A stretch of 32,995 bases of DNA from a virus (taxonomy: Duplodnaviria; Caudoviricetes), in the IMG/VR virus record IMGVR_UViG_3300032233_002986, positions 1 to 32,995 of that record; one strand, 5' to 3'. Numbering within the stretch: position 1 is the first letter of the stretch; each line of letters begins with the position of its first letter. The notes beneath the pieces were generated by a model. That model saw only the letters and a program-made list of their open reading frames with translations. It was not told where the DNA came from and did not search any database. Below, piece after piece: positions 4,066-32,946 of this stretch. The translations under genes and the position numbers were made by a program.

Positions 4066-4094
4066 TTGACAGACCTTTTAATAACTGATATAAT
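4066..4094 (+). promoter_or_regulatory. Sigma70-type (early) promoter
   Basis: TTGACA (4066-4071)-17 nt-TATAAT (4089-4094), perfect consensus. Confidence 0.85.
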
Positions 4095-4106
4095 AACTTT
4101 ATATTA

Positions 4107-4325
4107 ATGAAACGAATGGAAAAGTTTACAGTAGAAGAATTTCAAAAAGACTTTGATGATCTATTAGAAAGAGTAGAAAATGGAGAGTCTTTTATAATCA
4201 CCAGTGAAGGAAAAGAAGTGGTCATAATGCCTGCCGAGGATTATGAATATATTGTAGATACAGTTGATGGTATTGTGGATGAAGAAGTCATACGTATCCA
4301 CACGGATCACGAAGAAGGTTCGTGA
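4107..4325 (+). CDS. Phd/YefM-family antitoxin-like protein (orphan)
   Basis: 'FTVEEFQKDFDDLLERVENGESFIITSEGKEVVIMPAEDYE' matches the Phd/YefM N-terminal fold; acidic tail. Alternative start at 4116. Confidence 0.75.
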   Translation: MKRMEKFTVEEFQKDFDDLLERVENGESFIITSEGKEVVIMPAEDYEYIVDTVDGIVDEEVIRIHTDHEEGS

Positions 4326-4331
4326 GTTTTT

Positions 4332-4402
4332 GGGAGTATAGCTTAATGGTAGAGCGACCTGCTTATAACGGGTTGGTCTGGGTTCAATTCCCAGTATTCC
4401 TA
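4332..4402 (+). tRNA. tRNA-Ile (anticodon TAT)
   Basis: Acceptor GGGAGTA/TATTCCT, D-arm TAGCTTAATGGTAGAGC, anticodon arm ACCTG-CT-TAT-AA-CGGGT, T-arm GGTTCAATTCC, discriminator A. Confidence 0.9.
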
Positions 4403-4448
4403 TCAACTTTAAATTTAAAATAAATAATTTAAATTTGAATTAAAGAAA

Positions 4449-4670
4449 ATGTCTAGGAAAAAAACAACTATTGTTGAAACTGAAGAAGGTACTGTAGAAT
4501 CCGAAACTACAGAAGTGGATGGTGTTGTAACTGAAGATGTTTATATGTCAAAATATGATAAAAAAATAGATATTATAATTCAAGATCTTCAGACTCGTCT
4601 TACTGAAACTGAGTTAACACTTTCCAAATTGATTGGATTTTTAAACGGAAAATTTCCAATTGAACTTTAA
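4449..4670 (+). CDS. Hypothetical acidic protein with short C-terminal coiled coil
   Basis: 73-aa ORF; E/T-rich N-terminus and heptad-like 'IIQDLQTRLTETELTLSKL'. Confidence 0.65.
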   Translation: MSRKKTTIVETEEGTVESETTEVDGVVTEDVYMSKYDKKIDIIIQDLQTRLTETELTLSKLIGFLNGKFPIEL

Positions 4671-4683
4671 TTTATAAATTGAT

Positions 4684-4868
4684 AGTCACGGAGAGACTTT
4701 AAAAGTACTGGTCGGGACCCCCTCGAAGTCACGGATGGACTATAACAGAACTGGTGGAGTCATATGACCCTATTGTGAGTTTACAATCTCTCTAAAGGAT
4801 TGTTGGTGCGGATGGGATACTCTCCCCGCCTGGTTTCCAATTTCCAGTTAAAGAATTGGTGGCGTGCA
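4684..4868 (+). ncRNA. Structured repetitive RNA, probably related to the cyanophage manA/wcaG RNA motifs
   Basis: GC-richer intergenic tract. Two 43-nt-spaced AGTC-ACGGA..-GACT...ACTGGT units and two pseudoknot-capable units each followed by TGGYG; lies after a tRNA and before sugar-metabolism genes. Family name is from recollection, not a search. Confidence 0.65.
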
Positions 4869-4882
4869 TGAAAGACCTAAAG

Positions 4883-4909
4883 GGAGAGTTGCATAAACTC
4901 TCCTTTTTT
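4883..4909 (+). terminator. Rho-independent terminator
   Basis: GGAGAGTT-GCATA-AACTCTCC followed by TTTTTT. Confidence 0.8.
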
Positions 4910-4917
4910 GGTATAAT
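4889..4917 (+). promoter_or_regulatory. Sigma70-type promoter for the glycosylation cluster
   Basis: TTGCAT (4889-4894)-17 nt-TATAAT (4912-4917) with extended -10 TG; overlaps the terminator hairpin. Confidence 0.65.
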
Positions 4918-4938
4918 AAAATAAAATTATTTTTATAT

Positions 4939-5439
4939 ATGAAAGTTGGTTTTAATTGTAGTTCGTTTGATTTGTTCCATGCTGGACATGTCACAATGCT
5001 TAAAATGGAAAAAGAATTGTGTGATTATTTAAAAGTTGCACTTCAAGTTGATCCAACAATTGATCGTCCTGGAATTAAAAATAAACCAGTACAATCTGCT
5101 TATGAACGTTATGTTCAACTTCAAGGATGTAAATATGTTGATGAAATTCTTGTATATGAAACAGAAGAAGATCTTCTCAATTTGATTCAATCTCAAACAA
5201 TTCATATACGATTTTTAAGTGAAGAGTATAAAGATAGAGATTTTACCGCAAAACAATATTGTATTGATAATGGAATAGAATTGTTCTTTCATTTGAGAAG
5301 GCATAAGTATTCTTCAACTGAAATTAGAAATAGAGTTCATTATCTTGAAGAGCAAAAAAGATTAAAACATTCAGAAGAAAATGTAATAGAACAATATTCT
5401 CCAGAAATTTTAGAAAAATATTCTATTAAAGATAATTAA
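4939..5439 (+). CDS. Cytidylyltransferase (TagD/glycerol-3-phosphate cytidylyltransferase-like)
   Basis: 'SFDLFHAGHV' HxGH motif, 'KPVQS..ER', 'KYVDEI', 'YSSTEIR'. Confidence 0.85.
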   Translation: MKVGFNCSSFDLFHAGHVTMLKMEKELCDYLKVALQVDPTIDRPGIKNKPVQSAYERYVQLQGCKYVDEILVYETEEDLLNLIQSQTIHIRFLSEEYKDRDFTAKQYCIDNGIELFFHLRRHKYSSTEIRNRVHYLEEQKRLKHSEENVIEQYSPEILEKYSIKDN

Positions 5440-22558: not shown

Positions 22559-23354
22559 AAATAAATCAACCTATAAACTTCAAGGTATTGGTCCAATTTA
22601 TTACCTCAATCTTGATGGACAACCAGAAAGAAAAGATTATATGGAAAACCAATTTAAATATTGGGAAATTGAAAATTATACTCGTATTTCTGCTTATGAT
22701 GGTAGAACTGATGATTTGAGTGATATTATTTCTGGACGTTATCCAGATAATATGATTTCTGGTGAAATTGGTTGTACTACATCTCATTTGAAAGCAATTA
22801 AGCATTGGATGGAAACATCAGATAGTCCATATGCAATTATTATGGAAGACGATGTGGATTTGGATTTAATCAAAAATTGGGATTTTACTTGGAAAGATTT
22901 TTATTCATTAATTCCTTATGATTGGGATGTAGTGCAACTTGCTATTATTTGTACTGGACCTTTACATATCAAACTTCATAAAAGATTTGTAAATAATTTT
23001 TCTACTGCTGCTTATATGATTACTCGTCATCACGCAGAAAAACTTTTAAAGTTTCATATTCGTGGTGATAAGTACAAACTTGATAATGGAAGTAGACCAA
23101 GAGCAGTTGCAGATGATTTGATCTATAATTCTGGAAATACTTATTCTATTCCTTTACTTCTTTATAAAATTAAACTTGGTTCTTCAATTCATCCAGATCA
23201 CGTTGATGCTATTCATAGAGCAAGTTATGAAGGACTTCTTAACTTTTGGTCTCAAAATGGTGCAGGATTAAAAATTAAAGAATTGATGGATTATGATCCG
23301 TATTTGGGAAGAATTACTGAAAATGTTCCTGAACCACAACAAAATCCTTCTTGA
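22551..23354 (+). CDS. GT25-family glycosyltransferase
   Basis: YYLNLD...ER, RISAYDG, GEIGCTTSH, IIMEDDV, STAAYMIT...A.KL. Confidence 0.88.
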   Translation: MDKNKSTYKLQGIGPIYYLNLDGQPERKDYMENQFKYWEIENYTRISAYDGRTDDLSDIISGRYPDNMISGEIGCTTSHLKAIKHWMETSDSPYAIIMEDDVDLDLIKNWDFTWKDFYSLIPYDWDVVQLAIICTGPLHIKLHKRFVNNFSTAAYMITRHHAEKLLKFHIRGDKYKLDNGSRPRAVADDLIYNSGNTYSIPLLLYKIKLGSSIHPDHVDAIHRASYEGLLNFWSQNGAGLKIKELMDYDPYLGRITENVPEPQQNPS

Positions 23355-23397
23355 CAAGTCTTTAGATTTGCTATATAATTCTGTAATGTTTCGTAAC
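23351..23397 (+). promoter_or_regulatory. Sigma70 promoter of the hli operon with adjacent HLR1-like box
   Basis: TTGACA (23351-23356)-17 nt-TATAAT (23374-23379). Bases 23380-23397 read GTTACGAA-AC-ATTACAGA on the - strand. Confidence 0.75.
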
Positions 23398-23408
23398 AAA
23401 ACGAAAAA

Positions 23409-23618
23409 ATGACTGTAACGACTAATGAGTTCGGGCAACAAAATATGTTTGCTAAAGAACCCACGATGTATATCTCTGATGCTGATGCCATTAAATATGG
23501 CATGATGACTCATAACGAACGTGCAGAGCTTGCCAACGGAAAATTTGCAATGCTTGGATTTGTTGCCGCAATTATATCTTATGCGACAACAGGACACCTC
23601 TTTTTTGGTGTCTTCTGA
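23409..23618 (+). CDS. hli: High-light-inducible protein
   Basis: 'NMFAKEP' N-terminus and chlorophyll-binding helix 'AELANGKFAMLGF'. Confidence 0.93.
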   Translation: MTVTTNEFGQQNMFAKEPTMYISDADAIKYGMMTHNERAELANGKFAMLGFVAAIISYATTGHLFFGVF

Positions 23619-23704
23619 TGTCCGAAGTTATTTTTACTATTACTAGTGTTGCCTTCTTTGTGCTTCTTTCACATTCAATCAATCAACTTTCAGAAACTTA
23701 CTAA
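23618..23704 (+). CDS. 28-aa hydrophobic microprotein (MSEVIFTITSVAFFVLLSHSINQLSETY)
   Basis: TGATG coupling to the hli stop; one predicted TM helix; ends just before the RBS of the second hli. Confidence 0.6.
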   Translation: MSEVIFTITSVAFFVLLSHSINQLSETY

Positions 23705-23716
23705 CGGAGAACTAAA

Positions 23717-23836
23717 ATGAAATTCGGATTTACCCCTGAGGCAGAACTTCTTAATTCTCGTCTCGCAATGCTTGGGTTTGTAATCGCAGTTGGAACTTAT
23801 CTCACTACTGGGCAACTAGTTCCTGGAGTGTTTTAA
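23717..23836 (+). CDS. hli: High-light-inducible protein, 39 aa
   Basis: MKFGFTPEAELLNSRLAMLGFVIAVGTYLTTGQLVPGVF, with ExxNxRxAM and TGQxxPG motifs; GGAG RBS at 23706-23709. Confidence 0.92.
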   Translation: MKFGFTPEAELLNSRLAMLGFVIAVGTYLTTGQLVPGVF

Positions 23837-23865
23837 AACACTAACACAAATAAGTAATCATACCT

Positions 23866-23898
23866 ATCCCCACTCTAAATATGAGTGGGGATTTTTTT
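23866..23898 (+). terminator. Rho-independent terminator
   Basis: ATCCCCACTC-TAAATAT-GAGTGGGGAT followed by a T-run. Confidence 0.85.
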
Positions 23899-23918
23899 AT
23901 TCACAAAAGAACTTTCAG

Positions 23919-23996
23919 ATGGTCTATCATATTCTTGAAACTTATTTTGTGATTGGTATTATTGTTTTCATAATTAATACTGCAACTTATAAATGA
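23919..23996 (+). CDS. Possible 25-aa hydrophobic microprotein (MVYHILETYFVIGIIVFIINTATYK)
   Basis: Short ORF read directly; TM-like; weak RBS. Confidence 0.3.
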   Translation: MVYHILETYFVIGIIVFIINTATYK

Positions 23997-24018
23997 AAAA
24001 TAGTCGAGTATAGTGTAT

Positions 24019-24026
24019 AATAAATA
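24019..24026 (+). promoter_or_regulatory. T4-type late promoter
   Basis: AATAAATA (1 mismatch to TATAAATA) about 30 nt upstream of the large structural gene. Confidence 0.55.
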
Positions 24027-24056
24027 CTTGATAATGAAAAAAGATGATTATAGTTA

Positions 24057-27000
24057 ATGGAAATTTTTAAGAAGTCTATCAAGTATTCTAAACCTTTAAA
24101 GGATTTAGATAACAAGATAAAAAAACTTGATGAAAAACTTAAAAATACTGGAGTCATTGATATTGAAGATGACTCTGAAATTTTGTGCATTCAAGAAATT
24201 TCTTCTGAAAAATTACCAAAAATATATGATAAAGTAGAAGTTCGGAAAGAAGAAGGAATTTCGTATAATTGGAGAGAATCTTTTCTTGCAGAAGAAACTG
24301 ATGATGAACCTGTAGTAGAAGATGAGACCTATCATAAAACTATAGGTAGAGTTGAAAGTTATATTTCTGAAAGTAATAAAGAACTGATTGAAATAAGAGA
24401 CCAAGTATTTCAAGAAATTTCCGAATCTACATTATTAAATCTTCCAGAAATCAAATGCAAGATTGAGAAAGTATTGAAAATTTATGATCAACTACAGGAG
24501 GGTTTATTAAATGAGCCACCTGAAACTCAAAACTCTGATCCTCTAACTCCACTCAATCAAAAGTTTGTAACTACTGAAGATTTAAATAAGCATTATTCAT
24601 TATTTGTCAATCGTATTCAGGAACAACTCTCAACTCTTGGGGGTGGTGGAGAAACTCGTTTAAAATATCTTGATGATATTGTAGGTATTGCTACAAATGC
24701 AAGTGCTTATGGTGGCAAGTATTTACAATGGAACTCTACAACCAATAAAGCAGAGTTTGTGTTTGTAAGTGGTAGTGATTATGCATCAACGGCAGGTATA
24801 TCAACTGTTGCACAAGGTCTTACAGGAACACCTAATATTTCTGTTGGATTTGTAACTGCTTCACAATTGCAAGTTAATGGTGGTGGAAATTTCACCGGTA
24901 TAGTAACAGCATCATCATTCTCCGGTAATGCATCATCAGCAACTTATGCTACAACAGCAGGAATTTCCACTTATGCTACTAATGCTGGTGTTTCTACATC
25001 AGTTATAGGTGGTATTGGATCTGTTACTCAACTCAATGTTTCTGGTAATCTTGGCATAGGAACAGTTGGAATTAATTCAGTATTCTCAACAACTGATATT
25101 CAATCTTGGTATTATACCAACAAATCAAAATCAGTATCTGGTGATGATGGAACACCACAAGGAGTTTATGTTGGTGCAGCAGGAACTACAATGTTTATTG
25201 TTGGTGATGCTAACAATAGAATTATACAATATGCTCTTTCAACACCTTATGATGTAAGTACTGCTGGTGTTGCTGTTACATATTTTTCCACTGCATTACA
25301 AGAAACTGTTCCTACTGGAATTGATTTTGATCCAACTGGAACAAAAATGTTTGTTTCTGGAACTACTGGTGTTGCTCCACTGATTGTTGGTGGTGATTAT
25401 GTTCATGAATATTCATTATCAACTGCTTGGACTGTTTCCAGTGCTGGATACACAACAAGTTATAATGTAACAGCACAAGATAATACTCCACAAGGAGTTA
25501 CTTTTGGTGATAGTGGTTCCAAGATGTATGTTGTTGGTAATACAAATGATACTGTTTATCAATATTCACTTTCTACACCATACAGTCTTGCTTCTGGTGT
25601 AACTTATGATAATATTTCACTGGTTTTAGGAACAAATCCACTACTATTAGAAACTAACCCAAGTGATATTTCATTCAATTCCACAGGAACTGTATTATGG
25701 GTTTCTGGAAGTTCAAATGATAGAATTTATGAATTCCGTTTAGGAACTGCTTGGGATATTTCTACTGCTGTATTTTATGATGATGTTTATATTGGATTTA
25801 ATGAACTTTTAGTAACTGGAATTCAAGTCATACCAGGACAGAATATTGCTTATATTGTTGGTTCTAACAGTGATACTGTATTCCAATATTCAACAAAGAC
25901 ACCAGCAATTGAGATTGCTTCCAGTGGTATTTCAAGTGAGACTTCAATTGTTCTGAATAATGAAACCAGAGTAAAAGATAAGTTATATGTAAAAGGACTT
26001 GCACATTTTGATAGTAATGTTCTTGCACAAGGAAGTTTGACAGTTGATAATGCCATAACAATATCAGCAGGTTCATTAACTGTTTCTGGTGGTACTATTA
26101 CAGCAGGTAACAATGCTGCAGGTTTGCTTAATGGTAATACTGGGACTAACATTACTATGGCAAATGGCCAAACCACAGGAACTTTTTCTCTTGGTGGTGC
26201 TACCCAAACTGGTACTATGTCTGTTGGATTATCAACAGCATCACAAATCACCAACATTCAGGCAGGTGCTAATGCATCTGCAACAACCAAGACAATCAAC
26301 CTTGGTACTGGTGGTCTTTCTGGTTCCCTTACTCAAATCAACATCGGTCCAACTGCTGGTGTTGGTACTGTTGTTATTAACTCTGGAACTAATCTTGGTA
26401 TAGGAACCACAAATCCAACATCAAAACTTACAGTTATTGGTGATGCATCTATCAGTGGTTTAACAACAACCAATAACTTATATGTTGCTGGTGTAGGAAC
26501 TTTCTTATCATCAGGATTAAATATAAGAAACCCAGCAAACACTTTTGGTTATACAATTGCTGGTGATGCAATTGCTGCTGGTTATACTCTCACATTACCA
26601 GTCATCACAGCAAATACTGGCATTGCAGTAACTGGTTTAGCACAAACATTTACTGCATTACAAACATTTGCTGGTGGTGCAACAATTTCTACAGGTGCTA
26701 TTGTACATACTGCAACTGGAAGTAACTTTACTGCATCTTCATATACAATAGGAACAGTTACAATTGGTGGTCCATCACAAACTGGTGGGATTACTTTAGG
26801 GCAATCAACCGTATCACAAATAGTAGGTATTGCTACTGGTGTTTCTGGTGTAGGAACAACCAAGACAATCAACCTTGGTACTGGTGGTGCTTCTGGATCC
26901 TTTACCCAAATCAATATTGGACCAACTGCTGGTGTCGGTACTGTTGTGATTAACTCTGGAACTAACTTATTAGTAGGAACCACAACACCAACAGGAACAG

Positions 27001-28214
27001 CATCACAACCACTACAAGTTACTGGTGGTGGTTATGTTTCTGGTTCTGTTGGTATTGGAACCACAAATCCAGTAGCAACTCTTCAAGTCAAAGATGCACT
27101 TGCCTTTGAGACTACAAACACCACAACATCATCAACCTCACAAGTTGCAGTAGATACTTTTGCAACAGCAACATTCCGTTCTGCAAAGTATCAGGTTCAG
27201 ATGACTTGCCCAGGACAGATTGCAACTCTTGGTGGTATTACAACTGGTGGTTCTGGATATACTGCTGGAACCTTTAATGTAACTTTCTCCAACTCATCAG
27301 GAACAGGAGCAGCAGCACAAGGAACTCTTACAATCTCAAATGGAACAGTATCACAGATTGGAGTAGGAACTACTGGTGGTTCTGGATATATTACTGGTGA
27401 TGTCTTAACTGCATCAGGTGGTTCAGGACTTCAGGTTTCTGTTGCTTCTACTGCTTCTCCATCAGGTGCAATTCTTACATTAGGTGCAATCACAAGTGCT
27501 GGAATTGGATATACTGCTGGTGTTGGTGTAGGAACAACAACACTCACATTCTTGGGAGGAACAGGAACTGGTGCAGTAGGACTTGCAACAATTTTTGATG
27601 GTGTGATTACTTCTGCAACATTACTACAACAACCAACCACAGGAACTGGTGGAACTGTTTTTTATTCTGGTTCTAACTATACAACTGCTACTGTTCTTAC
27701 AATTGCAAAAACTGATGTAACAAATACTATTACTGATATTACTGGTTCTGTTGGTGTCTCTACATTCACATCACTCACAGCACACGGTATTGGAGTGAGT
27801 GATACTGTAAGAGTTTCAAGCACTTCTAATGGACTTACAGCAGGAACTAATTATTTTGTTGTGACTACTCCTACTCCAACTACATTTACTCTTGGAAGTT
27901 CTGTTGGTATTGGAACCACATTTACAACTGGTTCATCATTATCAATTGGTTTCTATCGTAACAGTGCAAATGCTGGTGGTTCTGTTTCTTATCTAAATGC
28001 AATCACAGGTGTCTCTACAAACTATCAGGTTTCTGATTTGTTAGTATTACAGAATGGAACAACTGCTGATTTTGTTGAGTATGGAACTATTGCAAATAAT
28101 GATGTTCTTGGAACCTTTGCTGCTGATATTTCTGGTGCAAATACAAGACTATTATTAACTCCAACTTATGCAACCAATACAGTTAAGGTTGCAAGACAGG
28201 CAATCACAGTATGA
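24057..28214 (+). CDS. Large virion structural/tail-fibre-like protein (1385 aa)
   Basis: Charged N-terminal region; beta-propeller-like repeats (G..MFVVG..ND...QY.LST.YD.STA); Gly/Thr-rich GIGTT fibre repeats; 'GGSGYT' repeats; C-terminal 'FRSAKYQVQ...EYGTI...GTF.ADISG' domain. Confidence 0.8.
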   Translation: MEIFKKSIKYSKPLKDLDNKIKKLDEKLKNTGVIDIEDDSEILCIQEISSEKLPKIYDKVEVRKEEGISYNWRESFLAEETDDEPVVEDETYHKTIGRVESYISESNKELIEIRDQVFQEISESTLLNLPEIKCKIEKVLKIYDQLQEGLLNEPPETQNSDPLTPLNQKFVTTEDLNKHYSLFVNRIQEQLSTLGGGGETRLKYLDDIVGIATNASAYGGKYLQWNSTTNKAEFVFVSGSDYASTAGISTVAQGLTGTPNISVGFVTASQLQVNGGGNFTGIVTASSFSGNASSATYATTAGISTYATNAGVSTSVIGGIGSVTQLNVSGNLGIGTVGINSVFSTTDIQSWYYTNKSKSVSGDDGTPQGVYVGAAGTTMFIVGDANNRIIQYALSTPYDVSTAGVAVTYFSTALQETVPTGIDFDPTGTKMFVSGTTGVAPLIVGGDYVHEYSLSTAWTVSSAGYTTSYNVTAQDNTPQGVTFGDSGSKMYVVGNTNDTVYQYSLSTPYSLASGVTYDNISLVLGTNPLLLETNPSDISFNSTGTVLWVSGSSNDRIYEFRLGTAWDISTAVFYDDVYIGFNELLVTGIQVIPGQNIAYIVGSNSDTVFQYSTKTPAIEIASSGISSETSIVLNNETRVKDKLYVKGLAHFDSNVLAQGSLTVDNAITISAGSLTVSGGTITAGNNAAGLLNGNTGTNITMANGQTTGTFSLGGATQTGTMSVGLSTASQITNIQAGANASATTKTINLGTGGLSGSLTQINIGPTAGVGTVVINSGTNLGIGTTNPTSKLTVIGDASISGLTTTNNLYVAGVGTFLSSGLNIRNPANTFGYTIAGDAIAAGYTLTLPVITANTGIAVTGLAQTFTALQTFAGGATISTGAIVHTATGSNFTASSYTIGTVTIGGPSQTGGITLGQSTVSQIVGIATGVSGVGTTKTINLGTGGASGSFTQINIGPTAGVGTVVINSGTNLLVGTTTPTGTASQPLQVTGGGYVSGSVGIGTTNPVATLQVKDALAFETTNTTTSSTSQVAVDTFATATFRSAKYQVQMTCPGQIATLGGITTGGSGYTAGTFNVTFSNSSGTGAAAQGTLTISNGTVSQIGVGTTGGSGYITGDVLTASGGSGLQVSVASTASPSGAILTLGAITSAGIGYTAGVGVGTTTLTFLGGTGTGAVGLATIFDGVITSATLLQQPTTGTGGTVFYSGSNYTTATVLTIAKTDVTNTITDITGSVGVSTFTSLTAHGIGVSDTVRVSSTSNGLTAGTNYFVVTTPTPTTFTLGSSVGIGTTFTTGSSLSIGFYRNSANAGGSVSYLNAITGVSTNYQVSDLLVLQNGTTADFVEYGTIANNDVLGTFAADISGANTRLLLTPTYATNTVKVARQAITV
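26282..26985 (+). repeat. Intragenic direct repeat (~130 nt, 573-nt period): 26282-26412 and 26855-26985
   Basis: Both copies encode TTKTINLGTGG.SGS.TQINIGPTAGVGTVVINSGTNL..GTT with high nucleotide identity. Confidence 0.9.
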
Positions 28215-29503
28215 GTATTATAAGACAAGGATTTGAGAGTGCTGATTTAGATGTTCCAGTAGTGCTTCCAACACTCAATCTGGACTTTGCAAACTCTCAA
28301 AGTTTGGATAGTAGAATTACATTCAGCAGAGGAAGTATTGGAACTCGTGTGAATAGAAATGGATTGATTGAAACTATTGCAGCAAATCAACCAAGATTTG
28401 ATTATGACCCTGTGACTGGTGAGTGTAGAGGACTTTTGATTGAGGAGAGTAGGAGTAATCTTTTTACTTATAGTGATGATGCTGCAACTGCTTGGGGTAT
28501 AAAATCTGGACTTACAGTATCTGCAAATACTGATATTGCACCTGATGGAAATCAAACTATGGATACTCTTGTTGAAGATGCAGCAAGAAATGATAAGTAT
28601 CTTGAAAGACAAATTACTGTAAATGCTAATCAAAATATTACTTGGTCTTGTTATGTGAAACCATTAAGAAGAACTAATATCTTTTTAGTCATTTATGATG
28701 GTGCTTCTTATAGTAATAATGTTAATTTTAGATATGAGTTTTCTAATCAAACAGTTACTCTTTCTGCTGCTTCTGGAACAGGAACTTTTGGTAGTTATAG
28801 TGTAGTGTATGTTGGTAATGGTGTTTATAGAATGGTTCTTTCTGGGCAACCAACCACATCAGCAAGTACAAGTGTTAGAATAAGAATTGGTTTTGTTAAT
28901 CAATCAACAACATATACAGGAACTGGTGTTTCTGCTGCTGCTGTATGGGGAGCACAATTAGAAACAGGAGCATTTCCAACCTCCTACATCCCCACAGTAG
29001 CATCCACAGTAACCAGAAGTGCTGATAATGCTTCTATGACTGGAACTAACTTCTCAAGTTGGTATAATCAAAGTGAGGGAACAGTATTGAGTAGTGTTAA
29101 TTTTATAGAAAATCTATCTTCAAGTAATTTTGCATCAAATAATATTTTGTATGGAATAAATGATAATTCCACAAACAATAGGATTACTTTATTTGGATTG
29201 AATGGATTTAAGAGTATTGTTTCAAGATATGTTATTTCTGGATTTACTTATCCAAGTTCTACTGTGGTTATAAGTTCAAGAAAAAATAAATTTGCACATT
29301 CATTTAAAACTACTGGTGTCTCATTAGTAGGTAATGGTGGGACACCATCCGCAACACAAACAGTAACCAATACATATCCAACAGTAAATAGATTAGAAAT
29401 AGGAAATCAAATAGGAACTTTCTATCTCAACGGAACCATAAGTCGTCTCACTTACTATCCAAAAGCACTTTCACCAGCAGAATTACAATATCTAACACAA
29501 TAA
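28211..29503 (+). CDS. Lectin/LamG-like phage spike or fibre protein, paralogue 1
   Basis: LNLDF, RITFSR, PRFDYDP..G..GLLIEESRSN, GAQLETGAFPTSYIPT...VTRSAD, WYNQSEGT, LNGTISRLTYYP. Confidence 0.75.
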   Translation: MSIIRQGFESADLDVPVVLPTLNLDFANSQSLDSRITFSRGSIGTRVNRNGLIETIAANQPRFDYDPVTGECRGLLIEESRSNLFTYSDDAATAWGIKSGLTVSANTDIAPDGNQTMDTLVEDAARNDKYLERQITVNANQNITWSCYVKPLRRTNIFLVIYDGASYSNNVNFRYEFSNQTVTLSAASGTGTFGSYSVVYVGNGVYRMVLSGQPTTSASTSVRIRIGFVNQSTTYTGTGVSAAAVWGAQLETGAFPTSYIPTVASTVTRSADNASMTGTNFSSWYNQSEGTVLSSVNFIENLSSSNFASNNILYGINDNSTNNRITLFGLNGFKSIVSRYVISGFTYPSSTVVISSRKNKFAHSFKTTGVSLVGNGGTPSATQTVTNTYPTVNRLEIGNQIGTFYLNGTISRLTYYPKALSPAELQYLTQ

Positions 29504-29504
29504 G

Positions 29505-30764
29505 ATGACTAAAATACTTTCCAACAAATCCAATATTGATTTAGATTATCCAATCTGTCGTCCAAGTTTGGATTTAGATTTCACACAAGAAGTATTAGAC
29601 CCACGCATTACATTCAGCAGAGGAAGTATTGGAACTCGTGTAAATCGTAATAGGTTGATTGAGACAGTATCTGCAAACCAACCAAGATTTGATTATGACC
29701 CTGTGACTGGTGAGTGTAAGGGACTTTTGAATGAGGAGAGTAGGAGTAACTTATTAGTTAATAGTGATGATTTTACAACTACTTGGGGTCCAAGTGCTGT
29801 TAGTGTTTCAAGTAATGTTATAACAGCACCTGATGGAAATACAACTGCTGATAAATTAGTAGAGAATACTTCATTTAGTTCTTTTAAGTTTGTTTTTCAA
29901 TCAGTTGGGACAATTGTTGGAACTTATACAGTATCTGCATTTTTCAAAGCAGGAGAAAGATTTAGTGGTTATATACAATTATTAAGTTCTGGTGGTAATG
30001 CTACTGCTGGTTTTAATTTGAGAACAGGAACTATAACTGGTGGTGCTGGAACCAATACAATTACTCCATATGGTAATGGTTGGTATAGAGTAAGTTCTAC
30101 TGCAACATTTACAAGTGCAACTGCAACAGTTTATATTGTTTTATATAATAGTAATGCAATTAGTAACTATACTGGTGATGGAACATCAGGCATTTATGTA
30201 TGGGGAGCACAAGTAGAAACAGGAGCATTTCCAACATCTTATATACCAACATCAGCATCTACAGTCACCAGAAGTGCAGATAATGCTTCTATGACTGGAA
30301 CTAACTTCTCAAGTTGGTATAATTCAAGTGAAGGAAGTGTTTATATACGAGCAAATTCTAATAATTTAACTTCGGGAGGAACAATATTTATTGCATCAAA
30401 TGCGTCTTATAGTGAAAGATTTGCACAACTTTCTCTTACTGGAAATGTTGGTTATGGATATGCTTCAACTTGGTTTACAAATAATAGTATTATTGGTGGT
30501 GGTGCATTTACTTTAGTTGGAGATACATATGCAAATGGTGCGTATAAAAAAATAGCATTATCTGGAATTGCTGGAAATTTTAATGGAGTTTCAGGAAATC
30601 AAGTTTTATCAACTAAAAAGACAAATCTTTATCCTACTGGAATAACTCAAGCAAGAATTGGAAGTTATAACAATAATGTTAGTTATTTAAATGGAACCAT
30701 AAGTCGTCTCACATACTACCCAAGAGCACTCAAACCAAATCAATTGCAGTATTTAACTCAATAA
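29505..30764 (+). CDS. Lectin/LamG-like phage spike or fibre protein, paralogue 2
   Basis: Same conserved blocks as 28211-29503 with divergent middle and C-terminal domains. Confidence 0.75.
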   Translation: MTKILSNKSNIDLDYPICRPSLDLDFTQEVLDPRITFSRGSIGTRVNRNRLIETVSANQPRFDYDPVTGECKGLLNEESRSNLLVNSDDFTTTWGPSAVSVSSNVITAPDGNTTADKLVENTSFSSFKFVFQSVGTIVGTYTVSAFFKAGERFSGYIQLLSSGGNATAGFNLRTGTITGGAGTNTITPYGNGWYRVSSTATFTSATATVYIVLYNSNAISNYTGDGTSGIYVWGAQVETGAFPTSYIPTSASTVTRSADNASMTGTNFSSWYNSSEGSVYIRANSNNLTSGGTIFIASNASYSERFAQLSLTGNVGYGYASTWFTNNSIIGGGAFTLVGDTYANGAYKKIALSGIAGNFNGVSGNQVLSTKKTNLYPTGITQARIGSYNNNVSYLNGTISRLTYYPRALKPNQLQYLTQ

Positions 30765-30765
30765 G

Positions 30766-32034
30766 ATGTCTATACTCTCACAGTTCAAGCAATCACAAAA
30801 CACAGATTTTCCAAATGTTCGTCCAAGTTTGGATTTGAGATTTGCACTTGCGAAAAAGTTAGACCCACGCATTACATTCACTCGTGGAAGCACAGGAACT
30901 TATTTTGGTTCTGATGGTCTTATGAGAACTGCTGGTGTGAATGAACCAAGATTTGATCACGACCCAATCACAGGACAAAGTTTAGGACTGATGGTGGAGG
31001 AGAGTAGGCAGAACTTATTAGCTAATAGTGATATTGAAGGAACTGTTGGAGCACAACCTACTGCTATGTTTCTTGCTGGACCAATTAATGGACAAACTGC
31101 TGTTGTTTCTACTGATGTTTCACTTGGACCAAATGGACAATCTTGTAAGCATACAAGAGGAGTTTATGGAGATAATAATATTGGATATATTCCCAGTGCT
31201 GCTGTGGTTGCTGGACAAACTTATGTGTTCTCTGCCTATGTGTATATTCCTTCATCACAAGCAAACAATTTTATAGGAAAAACTTTACAATGGAGTTTTG
31301 AAAGTCCTAACACAAGTAGTACTAATCCTTCTGTTGATGTGAGAATTATTAATAGGTGGCAAAGAGTTTATGGAACTTGTATTCCTTCTACTACTGCTGC
31401 TACTTGGGTTTTAAGAACAACCGCAAATGCTGGAAGTTTCTTTTATACTGATTGTTGGCAGTTAGAACTTGGAAGTCTTCCTACTTCTTATATACCTACA
31501 ACTGCCTCCACAGTCACAAGAAGTAATGATTTTGCTTGGATGATTGGAACAAACTTCTCAAGTTGGTATAATCAAAGTGAAGGAACAATTATAATATCAA
31601 CTGATAAATTATATTCTGGAAACTTTGATTATTATAGACATTATTATCAAATTGGTGATGTTACTGCTAATAATGGTTTAAGCATATACACAAATAGTGG
31701 ATCACAATACATAACAAATTATGGAACTACTAATGGTGGAAGACAAGTATTTGATTACCAACAAATATTTGTTGGTTCATCACCAACTCAATTTAAAATA
31801 GGGCAAGCATTAAATTCAAAGTATTCATTTTTTACATCTTCAAAAGGAACAACATCACCACAACTTCCAAGTAAATCAGCACCCAATTCTCAAAATAATA
31901 CTACTCCAACAAGTGTAGATAGAATGTGGATAGGTAGAAAAGTAAGTGGTGGTGAAATCAATTCACATATTGCTCGTCTCACCTACTACCCAATTCAACT
32001 CACCAATCAACAACTTATCAACTTAACGAGTTGA
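30766..32034 (+). CDS. Lectin/LamG-like phage spike or fibre protein, paralogue 3
   Basis: LDLRF, RITFTR, PRFDHDP, GLMVEESRQN, QLELGSLPTSYIPT, WYNQSEGT, IARLTYYP; the middle domain is different and CBM-like. Confidence 0.75.
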   Translation: MSILSQFKQSQNTDFPNVRPSLDLRFALAKKLDPRITFTRGSTGTYFGSDGLMRTAGVNEPRFDHDPITGQSLGLMVEESRQNLLANSDIEGTVGAQPTAMFLAGPINGQTAVVSTDVSLGPNGQSCKHTRGVYGDNNIGYIPSAAVVAGQTYVFSAYVYIPSSQANNFIGKTLQWSFESPNTSSTNPSVDVRIINRWQRVYGTCIPSTTAATWVLRTTANAGSFFYTDCWQLELGSLPTSYIPTTASTVTRSNDFAWMIGTNFSSWYNQSEGTIIISTDKLYSGNFDYYRHYYQIGDVTANNGLSIYTNSGSQYITNYGTTNGGRQVFDYQQIFVGSSPTQFKIGQALNSKYSFFTSSKGTTSPQLPSKSAPNSQNNTTPTSVDRMWIGRKVSGGEINSHIARLTYYPIQLTNQQLINLTS

Positions 32035-32823: not shown

Positions 32824-32852
32824 GATGTTAAGGAATCAAAACATTTCTTAAT

Positions 32853-32946
32853 CTTCTGTAACCGAGATCATCAGAAGTAAAGCATCTCTCATACCTGTAC
32901 TGGAGGGTGGTACAGGATATATTGTAACTGTTCAGTTCCCCCTGAA
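32853..32946 (+). ncRNA. Structured psbA leader, probable PhotoRC-II RNA motif
   Basis: CTTCTG/CAGAAG stem (32853-58/32872-77); loop GAGAT pairs with ATCTC (32884-88), forming a pseudoknot; CCTGTAC/GTACAGG hairpin (32894-32916). The position upstream of a cyanophage psbA matches the described context. Confidence 0.7.

Follow-up and report, generated by a model that had tools for sequence, protein, structure and literature searches.

A wcaG-family array of four pseudoknots in a cyanophage as a candidate trans-acting RNA for tRNA 3' ends

The wcaG RNA motif (Rfam RF01761) was introduced by Weinberg et al. in 2010 as a riboswitch candidate, and a single pseudoknot was annotated in it, corresponding to that of unit 4 in the locus described here (PMC2864571). 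The motif is catalogued as cis-regulatory; this role in the 5' UTR was a proposal of that paper rather than a demonstrated property, and its accessible text mentions neither complementarity to tRNAs nor an intervening terminator or promoter (PMC2864571). Two cyanophage genome papers, in the text available, restate the proposal of a polysaccharide regulator (PMC9964418, PMC9602691). Our literature search, which covered openly readable papers, returned nothing on wcaG function, on its arrangement in modular arrays or on binding to tRNAs; repeats or terminators may be described in subscription papers or in the 2010 supplements. In T-boxes, a UGGN sequence lies against a helix, on which the tRNA end stacks (PMC7583486). 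Type III antitoxins (ToxI, AntiQ, CptI) are near-identical pseudoknot repeats with A-rich sites that are cut by a toxin encoded past the terminator, and phage mimics of them (pseudo-ToxI) are known (PMC5086642). The manA (RF01745) and abiF (RF03085) RNAs are likewise non-coding RNAs of cyanophage tRNA clusters. A 2026 cryo-EM preprint reports that manA RNAs form RNA-only cages, and its accessible portion does not mention wcaG (bioRxiv 10.64898/2026.07.01.735769).

We analyzed a four-unit RNA element in a virus fragment of 33 kb, 17% complete; the whole stretch of 32,995 nucleotides is referred to as the window. The record carries a cyanobacterial-type porin, Dps, two tRNAs and PhotoRC-II, and a BLAST search with the stretch returned 89 phage records, 88 of which are named Synechococcus, Prochlorococcus or cyanophage. 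The RNA belongs to a T4-like cyanophage. The locus comprises the following features.

4066..4094, + strand: sigma-70-type promoter TTGACA-17-TATAAT, perfect (12/12 consensus matches)
4107..4325, + strand: Phd/YefM-type antitoxin gene (Pfam PF02604, E=1.7e-11; PHROG 375)
4331..4404, + strand: phage tRNA-Ile (anticodon UAU)
4449..4670, + strand: 73-aa ORF, its stop 13 nt 5' of unit 1
4684..4708, + strand: unit 1 fold, type A (4-bp stem, 7-nt loop, A-rich linker)
4709..4719, + strand: unit 1 tail, first 9 nt complementary to a tRNA-Pro-type 3' end including CCA
4727..4751, + strand: unit 2 fold, type A, starting 43 nt after unit 1
4752..4762, + strand: unit 2 tail, 11 nt complementary to a tRNA-Ala (or tmRNA) 3' end, U70 included
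4775..4873, + strand: wcaG RNA motif RF01761, units 3 and 4 (94.7 bits, cut-off 42)
4777..4803, + strand: unit 3 H-type pseudoknot, type B, UUU loop
4804..4829, + strand: unit 3 tail (4804-4814, complementary to a tRNA-Leu 3' end) and hairpin (4808-4829)
4830..4859, + strand: unit 4 H-type pseudoknot, type B
4860..4870, + strand: unit 4 tail, UGGC class, pairing at 10/11 positions with the host tRNA-Arg(CCG) 3' end
4880..4911, + strand: intrinsic-terminator-like hairpin (stem 4880-4906) and T run
4889..4917, + strand: promoter-like TTGCAT-17-TATAAT, -35 (3/6 matches) within the terminator hairpin
4939..5439, + strand: cytidylyltransferase-like gene, first of a nucleotide-sugar cluster (Pfam PF01467; PHROG 7878)

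The perfect promoter presumably starts the transcript that carries the array. Since promoter, antitoxin gene, tRNA-Ile(UAU) and small ORF all lie upstream, the array likely forms the 3' end of that transcript. The antitoxin gene is an orphan without an adjoining toxin partner, and the 73-aa ORF matched no family above cut-off in Pfam, PHROGs or PADLOC. In S-PM2, a Phd-like antitoxin lies about 2 kb upstream of that phage's own wcaG array.

The Rfam match covers the full length of the model (positions 1-98) and spans units 3 and 4 only. In its cyanophage range and its place before nucleotide-sugar genes the array agrees with RF01761: three hairpins with a pseudoknot on the last unit are present, and sugar genes come next, as described for cyanophage sites upstream of polysaccharide or high-light genes. 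The proposed 5' UTR role appears not to apply, as a terminator and a promoter-like site intervene and no antiterminator covariation was seen. Among the families that the first-pass annotation had named for comparison, wcaG matched, whereas manA, abiF and ToxI did not. With E-values up to 10, a search of 4300-5100 gave no match for units 1 and 2, nor any manA, abiF, antitoxin (ToxI), T-box or ribozyme family, and a ribozyme was dropped on this ground. That annotation was right in calling the pseudoknots, but it overlooked that Rfam already lists units 3 and 4 as wcaG and that the 2010 alignment contains the pseudoknot of unit 4. The model spans two modules, whereas array chains hold two to five, and it lacks units 1 and 2 as well as the 3-bp stem of the unit-3 pseudoknot; such modules occur as rows in the accessible 2010 alignment (PMC2864571). 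Units 1 and 2 are sister modules outside the reach of the Rfam model. Half of the element is already catalogued.

All elements called by the first reading, i.e. the units, their stems, the GCGG/CCGC hairpin and the terminator, were recovered. Units 1 and 2 are 29-nt copies with 83% identity at a spacing of 43 nt, each with a perfect 4-bp stem and a 7-nt loop, and in unit 1 the loop pairs back to the bases just 5' of the tail. In unit 3, a 3-bp stem (4777-4779/4790-4792) is interleaved with a 7-bp stem (4783-4789/4797-4803), and the tail provides the 5' side of the GCGG/CCGC hairpin at 4808-4829. Unit 4 interleaves a 4-bp stem (4830-4833/4844-4847) with one of 7 bp (4837-4843/4853-4859). Every module sets the final helix of a pseudoknot against an invariant UGG(U/C). 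Plain folding of 4680-4880, with a program that cannot model pseudoknots, yielded a stability not above that of shuffled sequences (z = +0.99).

Compensatory changes, which the first-pass annotation had noted in both interleaved stems between units 3 and 4, were seen in every stem among the homologues, with permutation tests as the reference. For 77 distinct modules at the unit-3 position, 71-77 were Watson-Crick paired at each position of the long stem, compared to 39-56 after permutation. The short pseudoknot stem reached at least 3 bp in 50/77 modules (20.3 expected) by four different sequence solutions; it was shorter in the other 27, 12 of which close with a wobble. In type A, loop base 2 and the base four positions 5' of the tail form a pair in every one of 73 distinct modules (38.5 expected), as C:G in 45 and U:A in 28; the search pattern had fixed part of the stem and demanded a pyrimidine at loop base 2, and an independent scan gave the pair in 35/35. 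The stem permutation tests ignore relatedness; the pair swap nonetheless recurs in three sequence backgrounds. Across 157 stems, G.U was found 65 times and A.C twice, which identifies the plus strand as the RNA. This wobble polarity, together with absent T-arm conservation, ruled out a DNA att site or a minus-strand tRNA mimic. The isolated pyrimidine-purine pair of type A (4688-4708 and 4731-4751 in the window; loci L001-L337) is out of register with the neighbouring pairs, and its position suggests a tertiary contact near the presumed dock of the tRNA end. CsrA-type GGA loops were dropped by eye, as several type-A loops lack GGA.

Scanning viral sequences for the wcaG core returned at least 120 loci, with an estimated total of 560. 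From the matches listed, we assembled 100 distinct arrays with enough flank, including the window; they hold two (23 arrays), three (35), four (37) or five (5) modules. A second scan revealed lone type-A modules, which follow a tRNA end at a distance of 0-1 nt, immediately precede a tRNA, or lie a few nt upstream of an ATG. These are often split from the remaining chain by an ORF, likewise in S-SM2 and S-SRM01. In solitary units the order is always fold, UGG(U/C), short hairpin. At several loci (L012, L015, L040 and similar), the upstream ORF extends with its final codons and stop into the first module; a stop-codon read-through signal is unlikely, because modules follow tRNAs too. The exact core pattern had seven matches in 185,579 species genomes and none in a cyanobacterium, although a diverged host copy could escape a single pattern. 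Three of the seven were chance matches and four were full arrays on short MAG contigs, one of them sitting with a cyanophage tRNA cluster. These four arrays in non-cyanobacterial MAGs (L458, L460, L461, L462) are probably mis-binned cyanophage DNA.

S-CREM1 carries a wcaG array, manA and abiF within 850 nt, and a tRNA-Met after the array. The three RNAs are interleaved with tRNAs (L243:2380-3380), manA nearly exactly filling the gap between tRNA-Leu and tRNA-Asn, so that tRNA processing, as judged from this arrangement, would free them.

Scans were run with the fold alone, the tail being absent from the query. UGG came next in 35/40 type-A and 93/125 type-B distinct matches; the other matches resemble chance hits or copies in decay. 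Wherever UGG was present, U or C came next without exception. A tail-blind detector found U or C in 471/472 cases, the sole exception being a false match within an ORF of the window. Each tail continues for 5-7 nt past UGG(U/C), and this stretch is complementary to the discriminator and to the 3' side of the acceptor stem in a single tRNA class. Targets were sought by locating tRNA T-arms in viral contigs and then the complement of each tail class. The unit-1 class hit 81 Pro among 86 called viral tRNAs (121 distinct matches, 35 uncalled), the unit-2 class 31 Ala among 35 (49 distinct, 14 uncalled), the unit-3 class 35 Leu among 41 (59 distinct, 18 uncalled) and the unit-4 class 23 Arg among 30 (69 distinct, 39 uncalled). 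The exact complement of the window's own unit-4 tail occurred in 18 distinct viral-contig matches, comprising 17 uncalled, one Trp and no Arg. The fourth tail base fits the discriminator, with U opposite A73 and, for Arg, C opposite G73. In 99/100 arrays no tail class occurs more than once, and the usual order is Pro, Ala, Leu, Arg; an Ala or Leu tail can be borne by either fold type. Minor tail classes starting UGGUGGAU, UGGUGGUG or UGGUGCGU (L009, L016, L017, L023, L102 and similar) may have other tRNAs as targets. The same UGGU tail also terminates other pseudoknot families that share no sequence relationship with types A and B (L030, L036, L056, L068, L071).

The G3-U70 pair defines tRNA-Ala and tmRNA (PMC5041485). 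Facing U70, the Ala tail carries an A instead of the G3 found in the tRNA 5' strand; it is therefore a complement of the 3' strand, not a copy of the 5' strand. Such copying was ruled out by the wobble positions of the Ala and Arg tails and by position +12, at which no U is conserved. Conservation drops from +11 to +12 from 1.6 to 0.7 bits for Ala and from 1.4 to 0.4 bits for Arg, i.e. right past the seventh acceptor position, which is the length of the acceptor stem. It extends one base further in the Leu class and fades sooner, at +9/+10, in the Pro class; in unit 1 the complementarity measures only 9 nt.

For the host side, Synechococcus tRNA 3' ends were taken from the reverse primers in Table S3 of PMC11726456; eight of the ten were used, Val and Asn being dropped since they start off the discriminator. 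Within these eight primer-derived ends, which include neither a Pro end nor the main Leu isoacceptors, unit 2 matched Ala(TGC), unit 3 Gly(GCC) and unit 4 Arg(CCG) at 7/8 each, with one G.U, a mismatched discriminator and a U.U mismatch, respectively. The best match of unit 1 was 5/8, in a table without a Pro primer. Three tails at 7/8 were reached by none of 100,000 shuffled sets and by 1,091 of 100,000 sets with tails resampled from tRNA ends. A search of 47 higher-GC porin contigs for host tRNAs yielded one tRNA. Cofolding with 12 viral tRNAs per class gave -9.1 kcal/mol for unit 1 with Pro, -17.4 for unit 2 with Ala and -9.4 for unit 4 with Arg; unit 3 gave -12.5 with Leu, with a predicted strand-exchange junction, and -9.2 with Gly. 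Off-target values ranged from -2.2 to -6.7 and those for the window's own tRNAs from -1.6 to -5.7 kcal/mol. These tRNAs had been preselected for matching ends, which makes the energies partly circular and only the specificity pattern informative. Within the array RNA, the two Gs of UGG are predicted to be partly paired in cis (unpaired probability 0.2-0.35, Leu and Ala linkers). Among phage tRNAs located near arrays, those for Leu, Arg and Ala pair with the tails at no more than 6/8 positions; the ends of phage Pro(UGG) and Gly(UCC) reach up to 8/8 and 7/8, respectively. On the strength of these complementarities, the modules probably bind tRNA 3' ends.

The same binding, used in cis, is the alternative that fares best, and the region between array and sugar genes bears on it. 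A generic scan listed neither the terminator at 4880 nor the promoter at 4889; both were recovered by custom rules across homologues. By the rule used, a terminator follows 76/100 arrays and is absent in 24/100. A sigma-70-like site follows 68/100 arrays (7.3 expected, maximum 14), with -35 variants that were picked after viewing the loci, and in 61 of the 62 arrays having both elements the -35 lies inside the terminator hairpin. A late promoter directly 5' of the array was rejected, as ATAAAT[AT] is present in just 2/98 arrays. In the 99 arrays other than the window, the next feature is an ORF (87), a tRNA-Gly (7) or neither (5). A hand count of Pfam matches among the 87 ORFs gave 39 NDP-sugar epimerases/dehydratases, 10 cytidylyltransferases, 7 2OG oxygenases, 4 mannose-phosphate isomerases, 14 others and 13 without a match. 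A terminator and a separate downstream promoter-like site, as the first-pass annotation had described, are present in the window and in most other arrays, and its argument for an RNA acting in trans rather than a 5' UTR switch gains from them and from the missing antiterminator covariation. The array appears mostly insulated from the sugar genes.

A T-box-like sensor would use uncharged tRNA to open the module hairpin and thereby alter translation of the next ORF or terminator read-through. The geometry is akin to the T-box discriminator, with UGGN against a helix, complementarity to the tRNA NCCA and a fourth base that fits the discriminator (PMC7583486). The hairpin of solitary modules often lies 2-3 nt before an ATG, and in the window the freed unit-3 strand 4819-4826 complements the 5' arm of the terminator, so that the two can compete (-14.7 versus -14.2 kcal/mol for the terminator). 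This alternative fold wins in only 4 of 73 distinct linker/terminator pairs, the window being one of them. Over these 73 pairs no antiterminator covariation was detected (own -8.74, permuted -8.84; 7,396 of 10,000 permutations as good), and an antiterminator was rejected as a general feature. A mutually exclusive terminator/antiterminator pair, by which T-boxes control amino-acid genes, is possible in the window taken by itself. The genes that follow arrays are not amino-acid genes, a separate promoter-like site precedes the downstream gene, and some arrays are followed by tRNAs. The array further differs from T-boxes in lacking Stem I, a specifier loop, a covarying switch and any Rfam T-box match, in using the helix of a pseudoknot, and in holding several units per RNA, with a specificity that would stem from 5-7 additional acceptor-stem pairs. 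We consider a sensor of this kind unlikely.

Returning to binding in trans, we slightly favor a model in which this wcaG-family RNA of four pseudoknots captures Pro, Ala (or tmRNA), Leu/Gly and Arg tRNAs and holds them out of translation. The antitoxin-tRNA transcript would carry the RNA at its 3' end and stop at the terminator. The single-stranded NCCA of a tRNA would pair with UGG(U/C) and stack on the last helix of the pseudoknot in the fashion of the T-box discriminator. The next 5-7 nt would then invade the acceptor stem as the weak hairpin of the module opens, and the resulting duplex of 8-11 bp would block aminoacylation. In this way an AT-rich phage could deplete tRNAs devoted mainly to the host's GC-rich codons, with phage tRNAs supplied from the same operon.

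Codon usage bears on this last step. In the window (7,160 codons), GCC accounts for 0.17%, CCC for 0.14%, CGG for 0.01%, CTG for 0.34% and GGC for 0.24% of codons; the values in 34 high-GC porin ORFs, taken as host-like, are 6.16%, 1.91%, 0.54%, 4.45% and 6.63%, respectively. The phage freely uses GCA (3.25%), CCA (2.09%) and CTT (2.75%), however, which are read by the same isotypes. Given this usage and the matching phage Pro and Gly tRNAs, a selective shut-off of the host would not be clean. Moreover, tRNA scarcity restricts Syn9, and tRNA supply decides Synechococcus infection according to the accessible text of PMC11726456; as a shortage of tRNAs blocks infection, removing them could cost the phage. 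Sequestration of host tRNAs as the purpose is hence put forward tentatively, as a proposal that may well turn out otherwise.

The purpose could also be the opposite, i.e. that modules bind tRNA ends protectively, against nucleases or end-modifying toxins, or soak up uncharged tRNA or tmRNA and thereby damp stress signalling. This would draw on the same tail-tRNA complementarity, and an operon with a Phd-type antitoxin and tRNAs, the S-CREM1 cluster with abiF RNA, and toxins hitting tRNA acceptor ends, which are described in the accessible literature, are in keeping with it. Invasion of the acceptor stem would by itself halt charging, though, the GC-rich-form codons of the targeted isotypes are little used by the phage, and no such host toxin was identified here. 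Protection therefore seems quite improbable to us.

Stated more generally, wcaG might, instead of a riboswitch, be the tail of a programmable phage anti-tRNA RNA, with swappable pseudoknot clamps directed at one isotype (or tmRNA) each through invasion of the acceptor stem, and with a pocket at the last tRNA nucleotide that reads or even acts on the aminoacyl end, an idea to which we would give just under an even chance. Were capture in trans correct, a single operon would add phage tRNAs and subtract host tRNAs, for which no precedent was found in the literature searched, and abundant aquatic phages would steer translation through a trans-acting RNA on tRNA acceptor ends. To our knowledge, binding of tRNA acceptor ends by bacterial RNAs is known mainly from cis-acting T-boxes. 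An orphan riboswitch candidate since 2010, wcaG is given a candidate partner by its modular anatomy and isotype-specific tails. The model would also tie in with the tRNA-supply result for Syn9 (PMC11726456), and the array would provide a small natural scaffold with which tRNAs could be captured by isotype.

The first-pass annotation had itself favored a multivalent decoy, cut into pseudoknot monomers, for type III-like toxin RNases or another protein. Tandem H-type pseudoknots of 43-56 nt with an intrinsic terminator and a variable copy number do resemble type III antitoxin loci, phage mimics of which exist (PMC5086642), and counter-defence genes lie nearby; the context of Phd-type antitoxin, tRNAs and, in S-CREM1, abiF is compatible with counter-defence. 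Nevertheless, the array units are not near-identical, only units 1 and 2 being repeats, and the tails differ by tRNA class, non-repeating in 99/100 arrays, so that the units are not copies of one site. The invariant UGG(U/C) is G-rich and central in solitary modules, in contrast to the A-rich cuts of ToxN and AbiQ at unit boundaries, and A-rich cut sites are missing at the unit ends. No antitoxin family matched at E-values up to 10, no toxin was found among 87 (Pfam) or 60 (PADLOC) downstream ORFs, PADLOC giving four 2OG matches only, and the exact-pattern scan detected no cyanobacterial genome with the core. The decoy thus lost its support and retains only a small chance; a protein partner for the array is possible, and would leave the tails unexplained.

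The small-molecule riboswitch or 5' UTR element for exopolysaccharide or high-light genes of Weinberg et al. is more improbable still. Its association with sugar genes is real (39 epimerases/dehydratases, 10 cytidylyltransferases and 4 mannose-phosphate isomerases of 87), 24/100 arrays lack a terminator by our rule, and the conserved isolated pair of type A suggests an intricate pocket. Yet terminator and promoter insulate most arrays, a covarying expression platform is missing, ORFs may sit between modules, tRNAs follow the arrays in S-CREM1, S-PM2 and 7/99 loci, and the tRNA complementarity would go unexplained. Cis elements that block 5'-to-3' decay or guide the cutting of tRNA operons, with the tRNA match incidental, are equally far-fetched: modules often begin 0-1 nt past a tRNA end or at a stop codon, and cyanobacteria possess RNase J and RNase Z (PMC10989914), but four isotype-specific tails and the discriminator rule would find no explanation and terminal arrays would shield themselves alone.

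Further observations concern the remainder of the window. The PhotoRC-II RNA lies at 32839-32930, where the record ends. At 28211-32034, a 1385-aa fibre-like ORF is followed by three tandem ORFs, each about 420 aa long, that look paralogous by eye, and small ORFs at 23340-24070 resemble high-light-inducible proteins by eye. At 307-344, a hairpin with TTGACA in its loop is followed by TATAAT 18 nt on and then by a tRNA-Gly, with neither a module nor a T run; a hairpin placed around the -35 is therefore not specific to wcaG.
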